The notes beneath the pieces are model-generated. The model worked only from the letters and a program-made list of their open reading frames with translations, did no database searches and was not told where the DNA came from. A DNA stretch of 64,000 nucleotides from an uncultured Hyphomicrobiales bacterium (GTDB taxonomy: Bacteria > Pseudomonadota > Alphaproteobacteria > Rhizobiales > Beijerinckiaceae): contig CAIZEI010000061.1 in assembly GCA_903931945.1 (NCBI GenBank), positions 2,994 to 66,993 on the forward strand, in the 5' to 3' direction. Made by a program: the position numbers and the translations under genes. Below, in pieces: positions 16,767 through 63,289 of the stretch. Position 1 is the stretch's first letter; each line of letters starts with the position of its first letter.

Positions 16767-18050
16767 ATGCCATCCGTGTTGCATACATCCAAACAAAATC
16801 CGATGGACGGCAGACCCTCTCCTGGAGGGAGAAGGTGGTCGCGGAGCAACCCGGTGTGGGGTTTCGATCTCTCCGATCGTCAAGATAATTGCCGCGAAAA
16901 GTCGCTGCACGCCCGCGTTGGAAATCCCTCGCCCCGCCGCCATGGCCCGCCTGAGGGACAGGTGTCCTCCAGACGGTTTGGGGCGGCGACCTTTTCCCTT
17001 TGTGGAAAGGTTTACGCGCTGACCTATCTGTTTTTTCTTCCGCTGCTAAATTTATCCACTTCCCTCCCCGCATTCGCGCAAGACTCCGTCGCGCAATTCT
17101 ATCGCGGCAAGACGCTGACAATTCTCGTGACCAACGGTATTGGCGGCGGGTTTGACACCTACGCGCGTTTTATCGGTCGCTATCTCGGCGCGCATATTCC
17201 CGGCAATCCGAATGTCGTTGTCCAGAATATGCAGGGCGCGGGCGGGGTTGTGGGAACAAACTGGATCGCCACCATCGGCGCCAAAGACGGGACGGTGCTG
17301 GGCGCTGTGCATCCCGCCGCATTGCTGGAGCCGCTGCTCGGCGACAAAGCCAAGGTTAAATACGACCCCTCAAAATTTCAGTATATCGGCAACGCCAACA
17401 GCGATGTGTTCGTATGCGTAACGCGCGCGGATGCGCCCGCCAAAACCTTCGCGGAAGCCTTGCAAAAGGAAACAATTGTCGGCGCAGCAGGGGACGCGGC
17501 CTCGCTGCGCGACATGCCGACGCTGCTGAACTCCGTGCTGGGTGCGAAATTCAAAATCGTCATGGGTTATGACGGCAGCCGGGCGATCCAGATCGCCCTT
17601 GAGCGCGGCGAAATCAATGGCCAGTGCGGCGTCGCATGGTCGGCGATTTCGTCCGTTCATCCCGAATGGTTTTCGAGCGGCCTCATCAAGCCATTGGTGC
17701 AGGAAGCGGTCGTCAGCTATCCCGCTCTTGACGCTATGGGCGTTCCGCGCAGCGTCGATTTTGCCAAAACGGACCTGCAAAGCGGTGTATTGGCGCTGGG
17801 TTATGCGCAGGAAACCATCGGTCGTCCCTATCTGATGGCGGCGGAAACGCCGCCCGAGCGTGTCGAAGCCCTGCGCAAGGCGTTTGCCGAAACGCTGGCT
17901 GCGCCTGATGTGCAGGCCGAGGCGCGCCGCATCGGGCTCGATATCCAGTCGATGGGCGGCGCTGATGTTCAGCGCTTTCTGGCGAAGGTTTATCAAACGC
18001 CACCGGATATTGTCGCCGCCACGCGCAAGGCGCTCAGGCCTGAGGGTTGA
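16767..18050 (+). CDS. Bug/TctC-family periplasmic solute-binding protein (start uncertain; N-terminus includes repeat copy A)
   Basis: AQDSVAQFYRGKTLTILV...GGGFDTYAR...HIPGNPNVVVQNMQGAGG...KDGT. ATG 16767 has GGAGG upstream. Confidence 0.88.
   Translation: MPSVLHTSKQNPMDGRPSPGGRRWSRSNPVWGFDLSDRQDNCREKSLHARVGNPSPRRHGPPEGQVSSRRFGAATFSLCGKVYALTYLFFLPLLNLSTSLPAFAQDSVAQFYRGKTLTILVTNGIGGGFDTYARFIGRYLGAHIPGNPNVVVQNMQGAGGVVGTNWIATIGAKDGTVLGAVHPAALLEPLLGDKAKVKYDPSKFQYIGNANSDVFVCVTRADAPAKTFAEALQKETIVGAAGDAASLRDMPTLLNSVLGAKFKIVMGYDGSRAIQIALERGEINGQCGVAWSAISSVHPEWFSSGLIKPLVQEAVVSYPALDAMGVPRSVDFAKTDLQSGVLALGYAQETIGRPYLMAAETPPERVEALRKAFAETLAAPDVQAEARRIGLDIQSMGGADVQRFLAKVYQTPPDIVAATRKALRPEG
16815..17010. 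repeat. Bipartite inverted-repeat element, copy A
   Basis: Left arm CCCTCTCCTGGAGGGAGAAGGTGGTCGCGGAGCAACCCGGTGTGGGG closely matches copy E; right arm CCCTCGCCCCGCCGCC...GGCGGCGACCTTTTCCCTTTGTGGAAAGG carries an internal insert. Confidence 0.8.
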
Positions 18051-20059: not shown

Positions 20060-20204
20060 CCCCCGTGTTTACGGGCAGAGGGCTGGGGTGAGGGGCTACA
20101 CAATGTTCGAGTTTTTTCGAACATCTGAATCCACCATCAAAGTTGGGCGCAGCCCCACATCCGGCCTTTCAGGCCACCTTCTCCCCGTTAGGTCGGGGAA
20201 AAGG
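20060..20204. repeat. Bipartite inverted-repeat element, copy B
   Basis: Left arm CCCCCGTGTTTACGGGCAGAGGGCTGGGGTGAGGGG; right arm GCCCCACATCCGGCCTTTCAGGCCACCTTCTCCCCGTTAGGTCGGGGAAAAGG; spacer contains the hairpin ATGTTCGA...TCGAACAT. Confidence 0.8.
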
Positions 20205-38741: not shown

Positions 38742-38892
38742 CCCTTGTCCCGCTCACTGCGGGAGAAGGTCCCGCGAAGCGGGGGATGAGGGCGGCGCGG
38801 CCCGCAATACCCCTGATTTTGCAGGCGTTTCATCGCCCTCACCCGTCGTTTTCGGACGCAAACGCCACCCTCTCCCGCGCTGCGGGAGAGGG
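38742..38892. repeat. Bipartite inverted-repeat element, copy D
   Basis: CCCTTGTCCCGCTCACTGCGGGAGAAGGTCCCGCGAAGCGGGGGATGAGGG ... CCCTCACCCGTCG...GCCACCCTCTCCCGCGCTGCGGGAGAGGG. Confidence 0.85.
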
Positions 38893-39749: not shown

Positions 39750-39987
39750 GCGTCATTCCTTCGCTATGGCTCGCAATCACCATCCAGAAGTCGGCGTCCT
39801 CCCCCCATTCCGAAAGTACCACCCGGGGTTCAATATGATAGGCCTGTCGGGGGTATTTTATTTATATATTCGATCATCCAAGACCGCGCGTTCGCGCGGC
39901 TGCCTGCTTTGGCGCCGGCTTCCCTCCGGAAATCGCGCAACGCGCAACCTCCGGCCTGTGTCGGTGTCAAGACCACGCGCCGTATTC

Positions 39988-40070
39988 AAAGAAAGGAGGC
40001 CGCTCGTTTGCACAAGCGGCCCCAAGTCAAGGGAGGAAACGCCCAAGAAGGGCATATGCAACACGTTGCA
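39988..40070 (-). ncRNA. suhB/MmgR (alpha-r8)-like small RNA
   Basis: Minus strand GCCCUUCUUGGGCGUUUCCUCCCUUGACUUGGGGCCGCUUGUGCAAACGAGCGGCCUCCUUUCUUU: conserved UUUCCUCCCU core, GC terminator hairpin and U-rich tail. 5' end approximate. Confidence 0.75.
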
Positions 40071-62220: not shown

Positions 62221-63111
62221 ATGTCCCCCAGCGAAATCCTCCAGGCCATTCTGGTCGCAGTGGTCTGGGGACTGGGGTTCATCGCGATCAAGCTGGGCGT
62301 CGGCGATATGCCGCCTCTGTTGTTTTCGGCCAGCCGGTTCGCGATGGCGGCTTTCCCGGCGGTCCTGTTTCTGAAACCGCCCGCAGCGCCGGCGCGGATC
62401 GTCATCGCCTATGGACTGGCGATCGGCGTGGCCCAATTCAGCCTGTTGTTCATCGCCATCGGGGAGGGCATGCCCGCCGGTCTCTCCTCGCTCCTGATGC
62501 AGACGCAGGTCATCTTCACCATGCTTTTTGCCTGGGCCGCGATGGGCGAGCGTCCGAGCGGGGTTCAGGCCTGCGGGGTCGCCGTCGCCATGGCGGGACT
62601 TGCCGTCATCGCCAGCGAGAAACTGACTGGCGGCGTCGCCGGGCCGTTCCTGCTCGTCATTGCCGCCGCAGCGTCCTGGGCGGCGGGCAATATCATCGGA
62701 AAATCTGCCGGCAGGGTCGATATGCTCGCCTTCACAACCTGGTCGAGCCTGGCTGCGCCCTTGCCCCTGCTGGCGCTGTCGTTCTGGTTCGAGGGCGAGG
62801 CGGCGCGCTCGGCGATTGTCCATCCGGGTTGGCGGGCGCTGCTGTCGGCAGCCTTTCTGGGCTATGGCGCGACCCTGTTCGGCTATTCGCTTTGGGCGCA
62901 TCTGCTCAGCCGCCGACCGGCGGCAATCGTTGCGCCGTTTTCCCTGCTCGTTCCGGTCGTCGGGTTTCTGGCGGGCTGGATCGTGTTTGGCGAGCAAACC
63001 AGTATTGTTGAATTTCTGGGCGCCGGGCTCATCCTGCTGGGCATTGGCTGGAATGTGCTGGGCGGCCGGGCGATGGCGAAGTGGCGGCGGGGCGCCAACC
63101 CTCTTCCATAG
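62221..63111 (+). CDS. EamA/DMT-family exporter (O-acetylserine/cysteine exporter-like)
   Basis: [11 protein letters not shown]...[10 protein letters not shown]...[14 protein letters not shown]; duplicated EamA halves; [11 protein letters not shown]. Confidence 0.9.
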
Positions 63112-63267
63112 GGAGAGGGTGGTTGCGGAGCAACCGGGTGAGGGGTTACACACGCCGCAATTGAATTGCGTCGTCAGGGTCAATGGCTTGGTCCTGGTGC
63201 TGCAATTGTTGAGTTTCCAACCCCTCACCCGGCCCCTTCGGGGCCACCCTCTCCCTATGGGAGAGGG
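63099..63267. repeat. Bipartite inverted-repeat element, copy E (best preserved)
   Basis: CCCTCTTCCATAGGGAGAGGGTGGTTGCGGAGCAACCGGGTGAGGGG ... CCCCTCACCCGGCCCCTTCGGGGCCACCCTCTCCCTATGGGAGAGGG. Confidence 0.9.
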
Positions 63268-63289
63268 TTCGTTCGCGGACCCCCTCAAC

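Follow-up and report, generated by a model that had tools for sequence, protein, structure and literature searches.

What are the paired inverted repeats that stand between genes at four places in one stretch of the genome of an uncultured Hyphomicrobiales bacterium, and what keeps them there? The window, by which we mean the whole 64,000-nucleotide (nt) stretch analysed here, spans positions 2994–66993 of contig C61 (CAIZEI010000061.1) in a 5.03-Mb draft genome of 203 contigs with 60% G+C (GCA_903931945.1). Judged by protein neighbours, the organism belongs with uncultured Hyphomicrobiales close to Roseiarcus and Beijerinckiaceae. A prediction made from its letters alone, hereafter the original prediction, described four copies of a bipartite inverted-repeat element. 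All four are present, at 16815–17010, 20060–20204, 38743–38892 and 63099–63267; the first two are decayed and the last two intact, and neither a profile search nor a structural scan found further copies in the window. Our analysis shows that they are inward-facing doublets of a two-hairpin arm that recurs throughout the genome and that, in this genome and in other species, flanks a small gene of the DUF559 family. Membership in a DUF559-associated class resembling the BoxC/TMECO repeats is very probable, and we lean towards the fuller account in which the copies are REPIN-like doublets of triplex-type arms with a DUF559 nuclease as the partner that acts on them.

Anatomy of the arm

Each arm is approximately 50–60 nt long and is organized, from 5′ to 3′, as hairpin 1, a single T, hairpin 2 and a G-box. 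Hairpin 1 is a 9-bp homopyrimidine/homopurine stem in which CCYTCTCCC and GGGAGARGG, matched with at most one mismatch, enclose a loop of 3–10 nt; 3-nt loops occur, and 7–10 nt are common. About 40% of arms also have a GCGCG-type motif on the outer side of hairpin 1, compared with a 14% background. The stem of hairpin 2 has 4–9 bp and is free in sequence. The G-box, GGRTGAGGG followed by 1–3 more conserved letters, has no complement inside its own arm and mirrors the purine strand of hairpin 1. This mirror relation, which the original prediction had missed, places the arms in the class of repeats known as BoxC, PIT or TMECO.

The mirror is kept when the letters change. A hairpin 1 with GGGAGAAGG goes with the G-box GGATGAGGG (A-type arms), and one with GGGAGAGGG goes with GGGTGAGGG (G-type arms), with one exception among the arms defined by a hidden Markov model (HMM), a profile that treats its columns independently. 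The A-type arm shows that the relation is a mirror and not a direct repeat. Laid antiparallel on the purine strand, the G-box gives only G·G:C, A·A:T and T·A:T triplets, and in 51 arms 8–9 of the 9 triplets fit. In doublets that combine the two types, the G-box agrees with its own hairpin, and it is the stem between the arms that takes an A·C mismatch. Arm classes in other genomes also keep the rule (AGGAGAGGG with GGGTGAGGT, GGGGGAGGG with GGGAGGGGG), and the argument from the mirror is carried by these cross-genome classes together with published biophysics.

Doublets across the genome

An iterated nhmmer search of the whole genome with the arm profile recovered 50 arms, which fall into 33 loci; a structural scan of the same sequence found approximately 70 arms, after 8 double counts of palindromic hairpins had been taken out, and 23 inward-facing doublets. 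The family is thus multi-copy, as had been predicted, and the arm count is a lower bound because several arms lie at contig ends. Eleven arms elsewhere in the genome have the short second loop (N3–5) of canonical TMECOs, and short-linker arms are paired with long-linker arms on contigs C56 and C86 and in window copy 20060.

The original prediction treated the bipartite whole as the conserved structure. We reject a whole-element inverted repeat in this role: hairpin 2 is identical in the two arms in none of 24 doublets, the loop of hairpin 1 is common to both arms in 2 of 24, and an A-type arm is combined with a G-type arm in about 12 of 24. What is kept is therefore the fold of each arm and not the symmetry of the pair; the conserved folding unit is the single arm. 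The spacer was tried as a conserved element core and likewise rejected, as spacer sequences are unrelated apart from two duplicated loci. Its length is 42–46 bp in 12 of 23 doublets and 29–77 bp in the others, so that the variable spacer of the original prediction is variable in sequence and mostly kept in length.

Some doublets consist of canonical short-linker arms on both sides (C25:79–185, C33:58260–58399, C151:107891–108042 and C203:11302–11437), and several of these short-linker doublets have a G·A mismatch in hairpin 1 (CCCTCGCCC/GGGAGAGGG), which also marks most E. coli TMECOs. Two near-identical doublets at C151:63209–63342 and 75373–75507 lie 12 kb apart in opposite orientation with similar outer flanks, and a third related copy is at C148:953–1091; these doublets are apparently part of a larger repeat. 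Outside this genome, megaplasmids or chromids of Azospirillum, Methylosinus trichosporium OB3b and Shinella have matches of 81–88% identity to individual arms (about 50 nt) but not to whole elements.

Co-variation of hairpin 2

The inner hairpins had been predicted to differ in sequence and still pair, and they do. Among 19 distinct arms with a 20-nt linker, taken from this genome and, in other species, from at least 14 loci, pairing is seen in 96.7% of the hairpin 2 cells (74.5% when shuffled), and both sides change in 7 of 8 pairs. The covariation score is 0.579 against 0.152, a value reached by 0 of 500 shuffles, and controls in which the pairing was slid stayed at or below 0.125. A larger set of 266 arms contains 118 distinct hairpin 2 stems, and the perfect stem averages 6.3 compared with 3.9 for shuffled linkers.

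The loops of hairpin 2 are strongly biased. Approximately 240 of these arms have a stem of at least 4 bp, and in 144 of them the loop is GAA, GGA, GCA or GTA, with GAA in 114 arms. GCGNAGC is an extraordinarily stable DNA mini-hairpin with the core C-GNA-G (PMC13037366), and RNA does not support purine-motif triplexes (PMC4666352). GNA loops and a triplex excluded in RNA therefore point to single-stranded DNA (ssDNA) as the selected form. The original prediction had left the branched structure open between ssDNA and RNA; that it is kept in ssDNA is the more likely. Folded as ssDNA, the segment 63092–63275 is predicted at −62.3 kcal/mol compared with −30.0 ± 3.2 for shuffles (z = −10.3), and the segment 38736–38898 (z = −3.8) is predicted to form local hairpins and a stem that closes the spacer.

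A DUF559 gene between the arms

The only complete match to DUF559 (PF04480) in the genome, at C62:102970–103269, scores 113–116 bits against a cut-off of 20.6 and has one in-frame TGA at a conserved Trp; a second copy is interrupted by the end of contig C94. The C62 element is laid out as arm, gene, arm, 66-nt spacer and arm, and its outermost hairpin loops, GTGAAAC and GTTTCAC, are exact reverse complements. In relatives a degenerate right arm lies directly 3′ of the gene, so we read the C62 locus as a gene-bearing element beside a gene-less doublet.

This arrangement recurs in other species. We surveyed one genome per species with two catalytic-core peptides as queries and kept the best 80 loci; because only peptides of the core domain were used, the search had no bias towards arms. 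A plus-strand arm lies within 300 bp upstream of DUF559 at 64 of the 80 loci, a minus-strand arm within 300 bp downstream at 61, and both at 52. Arm density is 1.72 per kb around DUF559 and 0.080 per kb in the flanks. Loci missed by the strict arm scan still have inverted arms of 24–68 nt around DUF559, and at two Thermoanaerobaculia loci the inverted arms are 94–99% complementary. The arms adjoining DUF559 comprise 170 with a long linker and 0 with a short one, those farther off 33 and 18, respectively. The C-terminal tails of many annotated DUF559 proteins (PSSDP..., HLLP..GEG) are translated right arms. A link to DUF559, which the original prediction had put forward, thus holds in this genome and in the 80 loci; no such link between DUF559 and a repeat appeared in the literature that we searched.

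In E. coli K-12, the end of the DUF559 gene ycjD is a degenerate hairpin 1, and TMECO no. 9 lies approximately 170 bp downstream, with a rough chance of ~0.003 estimated from 18 TMECO sites in 4.6 Mb. At NC_000913.3 1351039–1351407, the 3′ end of ycjD recurs in part, with a remnant G-box, ahead of the intact TMECO, and the region resembles a decayed tandem of gene-bearing elements.

The two arms of gene-bearing elements are not equivalent. In relatives, the second base pair of hairpin 2 is G·T (TGG..GTC) in 48 of 64 arms downstream of DUF559, compared with 26 of 66 upstream arms and 17 of 73 other arms, counts taken from phylogenetically non-independent loci. This skew indicates that left and right arms have become differentiated. 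In the present genome the pair occurs in 2 of 63 arms, one of which is the arm downstream of DUF559 (C62:103433–103486). T:G is the classic substrate of Vsr, and a connection between this pair and Vsr-type T:G recognition is speculation.

DUF559 has the invariant catalytic-type residues D34, E45, D47, H51 and D60. A sequence search against known structures matched the structural-genomics entry 3HRL only, and 3HRL is also closest to a model of an intact relative with a predicted local distance difference test (pLDDT) score of 83. Next after 3HRL comes the catalytic domain of the homing endonuclease I-Bth0305I (PDB 3R3P; E = 2e-4, template-modelling (TM) scores 0.59/0.70), and Vsr (1VSR) is weaker (E = 0.02). 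In contrast to I-Bth0305I and Vsr, with which the model shares its fold, the DUF559 protein here is a lone domain of approximately 120 amino acids (aa) outside any intron or intein.

Other genes keep company with the arms or share their sites. One genomic slot is repeated, with a 71-nt block (AAGACTTTTGAGAAATTTCGTTGAGCC..GAAAGATATGTCTGAAAG), an insert and a 5′-truncated serine-recombinase open reading frame (ORF), at C62:102735–103700, C135:4037–5031 and C29:16417–17393 and also at loci L005 and L006. Its insert is either a DUF559 element or a Y1_Tnp (RAYT-like) gene with REP-like arms of its own, where REP stands for repetitive extragenic palindrome; in a related chromosome, DUF559 occupies the slot twice. 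At C35:4275–5170, two inward-facing arms enclose a 222-aa ORF that has no match in Pfam or NCBIfam, and similar non-DUF559 cargo lies between arms at L007:5472–6188 and L043:841–2043.

Relation to known repeats

BoxC, PIT and TMECO are names of one family (Bachellier et al., 1990s; Hoyne et al. 2000; Holder et al. 2015, PMC4666352), defined as CCCTCNCCC N3-6 GGGNGAGGG N3 GGGNGAGGG and present in 262 proteobacterial genomes (PMC4666352). Its intrastrand triplex has been shown with E. coli oligonucleotides by circular dichroism and nuclear magnetic resonance (PMC4666352). The arms described here repeat the three blocks of that family in their order and almost letter for letter (CCCTCNCCC, loop, GGGNGAGGG, loop, GGGNGAGGG). 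As in the known family, the third block mirrors the second, the copies are intergenic and number in the tens, and inverted pairs often join two different subtypes; such pairs occur at 5 of 18 MG1655 sites, each a type A with a type B (PMC4666352, Table 1).

The difference lies in the second loop, which has 3 nt in BoxC/PIT/TMECO and here consists of T plus the co-varying hairpin, 12–23 nt in all. The window arms therefore fall outside the N3 definition, with the exception of the left arm of copy 20060, and the ITxF search of the TMECO study, which allowed loops of 1–6 nt, would miss the long-linker arms. That paper describes no partner gene and mentions no endonuclease, whereas here DUF559 lies between the arms and the host is an alphaproteobacterium; the GC-alternating motif outside hairpin 1 is a further difference. 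Canonical short-linker arms occur in this genome and pair with long-linker ones, so we regard the arms as a variant of BoxC/PIT/TMECO and not a separate invention.

The doublets also resemble REPINs (Bertels and Rainey 2011, PMC3116915; PMC3337134). Both are inverted doublets of a short palindromic unit whose spacer is fixed in length and not in sequence, both are predicted to form ssDNA hairpins with compensatory changes, and in both, one or a few small genes flanked by the unit stand against tens of gene-less doublets. Unlike in the REPIN–RAYT system, the flanked gene here encodes a PD-(D/E)XK nuclease and not a Y1/HUH transposase; the unit has two hairpins plus a triplex strand, and a doublet often combines units of different types. 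Enterobacterial bacterial interspersed mosaic elements (BIMEs), built from REP types Y and Z, similarly show mosaic unit subtypes, alternating orientation and short linkers, but their unit differs in sequence and structure. The partners of BIMEs are IHF, gyrase and Pol I.

The original prediction further likened the copies to miniature inverted-repeat transposable elements (MITEs). A length of 135–170 bp, inverted ends, the lack of a gene and the existence of a gene-bearing relative fit this comparison. The strict sense of the term is not supported: the search for a target duplication gave none, the internal sequence varies and has no clear homology to the gene-bearing copy, and the candidate enzyme is not a known transposase.

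The four copies in the window

Copy 63099 is intact. Its left arm (63099–63144, plus strand) has the pyrimidine strand of hairpin 1 at 63099–63107, the loop ATA and the purine strand at 63111–63119, followed by T and hairpin 2 (TTGC-GGA-GCAA) at 63120–63135 and the mirror G-box GGGTGAGGG at 63136–63144. The spacer (63145–63221) has 77 nt, compared with the modal 42–46, and no similarity to other spacers; its ends GTT/AAC lengthen the G-box stem. In the right arm (63222–63267, minus strand), the complement of the G-box, CCCTCACCC, occupies 63222–63230, hairpin 2 (GGCCCC-TTC-GGGGCC) 63231–63246 and hairpin 1 63247–63267. The eamA-like gene ends inside the left arm, from which come its final codons and its stop (TAG at 63109–63111, within the hairpin 1 loop), and the serS ATG at 63282 follows 14 nt after the right arm. 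The original prediction had the copies at accessory-gene junctions; this one sits in the conserved gene row tatABC-eamA-serS-surE. The serS frame remains open upstream across the whole element (62660–63281), and public gene calls give a serS of 513–553 aa, where approximately 433–438 aa is normal.

The other intact copy joins two arms of different type. Its left arm (38743–38792, plus strand) is A-type, with CCTTGTCCC and GGGAGAAGG in hairpin 1, CCCGC-GAA-GCGGG as hairpin 2 and the G-box GGATGAGGG. The spacer (38793–38835) has the modal length, at 43 nt. The right arm (38836–38892, minus strand) is G-type and has a 23-nt linker of the CGTTTGCGTCCGAAAACGAC family, which recurs on contigs C41, C48, C169 and C180.

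The other two copies are decayed. In copy 16815, the left arm (16815–16860, plus strand) has one mismatch per hairpin, that of hairpin 2 being in TCGC-GGA-GCAA, and its G-box CGGTGTGGG is the one exception to the mirror rule mentioned above. The right arm (16926–17010, minus strand) has the G-box complement CCCTCGCCC and a hairpin 1 of CCTTTTCCC and GTGGAAAGG, with a hairpin 2 enlarged by an insertion of approximately 45 nt. Copy 20060 combines a decayed, canonical TMECO-like short-linker left arm (20060–20094, plus strand; ..CCCGTGTTTACGGGCAGAGGG-CTG-GGGTGAGGG, with a 3-nt linker) with a long-linker A-type right arm (20154–20204, minus strand; GGATGTGGG, hairpin 2 GGCC-TGAAA-GGCC) that is largely intact and has mismatches in hairpin 1. 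The window also contains an Rfam match to mmgR (RF00519, 66 bits) at 39983–40060 on the minus strand, an ordinary alphaproteobacterial small RNA unrelated to the repeats.

Occupied and empty sites

In this genome and in a second assembly of the same species, whose EamA protein is identical, the gap between eamA and serS measures 170 bp. In relatives with EamA identities of 78, 67 and 74% it is 58, 55 and 60 bp, respectively, the last value being taken from gene coordinates only. At this site, the element is present in some genomes and absent from others. A comparison of filled and empty sites, proposed with the original prediction, thus gave the difference in gap size (170 against 55–60 bp). 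No target-site duplication was seen, and the ends of the element are inverted GCGCG-type motifs, not direct repeats. A metagenome scan for eamA orthologues gave one distant match only.

DUF559 itself diverges faster than its surroundings, with 77–88% identity against 90–97% for the flanks in many orthologous pairs. Replacement of the DUF559 cassette between fixed arms was considered and not seen; the divergence is merely 2–3 times faster than that of the flanks. One complete chromosome contains two DUF559 units that are 97% identical and 0.4 Mb apart, inside a larger shared context, and we count them as a recent duplication. Elements are gained or lost, and this is slow, as has been described for REPINs (PMC3116915).

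Discussion

The account towards which we lean takes the four window elements as gene-less doublets of an arm that would be built to fold in ssDNA. In each arm, the G-box would add a third strand, antiparallel to the purines of hairpin 1, and so complete a purine-motif triplex, a BoxC/PIT/TMECO design with hairpin 2 inserted into the second loop. Two such arms stand opposite one another with a spacer of fixed length and free sequence between them, in the manner of a REPIN, and full-length members have, exactly between the arms, one small gene for a DUF559 protein, a predicted PD-(D/E)XK nuclease resembling Vsr and homing endonucleases. When the duplex is unwound, the 5′ arm of each strand could fold and become the substrate of a DUF559 nuclease supplied in trans; a nick at the folded arm might then lead to copying or gene conversion, by which doublets would spread or be maintained. 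The gene-less window copies would be non-autonomous or fossil members. The step at which DUF559 acts on the arms is possible and somewhat short of probable.

Several observations weigh against this account. At the eamA–serS site, the empty sites are too diverged for an exact junction or a target duplication to be read. Within Bosea, Methylobacterium and Methylocystis/Methylosinus, different species have DUF559 elements at orthologous sites, so movement must be rare at best. Similarity between the gene-less spacers and the leader or trailer of the gene-bearing copy is at most weak, so the gene-less copies are not plain deletion derivatives. About 23 doublets persist although the DUF559 gene of this genome has an in-frame TGA. 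Two arm lineages underlie the mirror rule in this genome, and shared descent could suffice to produce it; the commonest Methylobacterium class includes one non-canonical triplet. Triplex formation by arms with a structured linker of 12–23 nt is a prediction. Caulobacter VsrA, the one DUF559 protein studied in vivo, is a source of DNA damage in cells that lack a cytosine methylase and has been interpreted as a nuclease of T:G mismatch repair (PMC12907096). We know of no strand-transfer activity in a 120-aa PD-(D/E)XK nuclease.

The main rival takes the arms as host structural repeats of the BIME or BoxC kind, neutral or serving supercoiling, fork pausing or insulation and spread by slippage or recombination, with DUF559 as an ordinary Vsr-like T:G repair nuclease captured or retained between arms that act as landing pads or insulators. 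The stability of DUF559 loci at orthologous sites across genera, the doublets that outlast a broken gene and the mismatch-type behaviour of VsrA tied to 5-methylcytosine all suit it. So do the other ORFs enclosed by arms (C35, L007 and L043) and the view of Holder et al., who found no link of TMECOs to transposons, phages or plasmids and proposed instability as the effect of the repeats (PMC4666352). However, exact nesting of DUF559 between inverted arms at 52–64 of the 80 loci, with a 21-fold local enrichment, and the recurrence of this nesting in another phylum with different arm sequences are the signature of a unit and not of chance capture. The faster evolution of DUF559 than of its flanks and a fold nearer to the homing endonuclease than to Vsr also argue against a captured repair enzyme, and we judge this explanation rather unlikely.

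Mobilization by the RAYT of the genome, a Y1/HUH transposase, would make the elements REPINs proper. The doublet design, the fixed spacing and the variable spacer match the description of REPINs (PMC3116915), and the genome contains two Y1_Tnp genes. Both, however, are flanked not by the arms but by their own unrelated REP-like repeats (GGCCCCGGAGGGGCC... and CCCACGGGTT...), which have 4–5 copies; no triplex-type arm lies on their contigs, and the gene between the arms is DUF559 in the 80 loci. RAYT was therefore rejected as the partner, and no HUH/Y1 partner, an option raised with the original prediction, was found; this route is highly improbable. Scarcely better placed is a role in RNA within operon gaps, whether as terminators, as small RNAs or as stabilizers of mRNA. 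The genes on either side of each of the four window copies run in the same direction, the copies are probably transcribed, and hairpins would form in RNA too. Yet no Rfam family matches the elements at the gathering threshold (mmgR is the sole match in the window), no T-run follows the hairpins, and the elements are strand-symmetric. Inside its own arm the mirror G-box lacks a Watson–Crick partner, and it could act as a third strand only in DNA, and GNA triloops closed by C:G are the optimum of DNA hairpins. PIT elements had neither promoter nor terminator activity in E. coli, as far as the summary in PMC4666352 goes. We consider an RNA function improbable.

For the account of DUF559 as partner of the doublets, the consequences reach beyond this genome. 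BoxC/PIT/TMECO repeats have been known since the 1990s, form a triplex in vitro and mark unstable loci, while their origin, partner and function have stayed unexplained (PMC4666352). Triplex finders limited to short loops would miss the long-linker variant described here. In many species arms of this kind enclose a small nuclease gene, and in E. coli K-12 such a gene adjoins one. In practical terms, the arms break assemblies and get read into ORFs, as with the serS calls at 63099, which are approximately 115 codons too long. What was a descriptive puzzle becomes testable at the bench with a 120-aa protein and a 50-nt oligonucleotide. As a tentative proposal, DUF559 and its hairpin-plus-triplex arms may constitute a second bacterial REPIN-like replicator, in which a PD-(D/E)XK enzyme resembling Vsr and homing endonucleases, rather than an HUH enzyme, would recognize the folded ssDNA arm and drive the copying or conversion of doublets; it might work by way of the triplex or of the conserved G·T pair at the foot of hairpin 2. 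BoxC/PIT/TMECO repeats, in E. coli, in Alphaproteobacteria and beyond, would then have an explained origin. If true, the proposal would add a new enzyme class to the REPIN-type, long-lived replicators of bacterial genomes.

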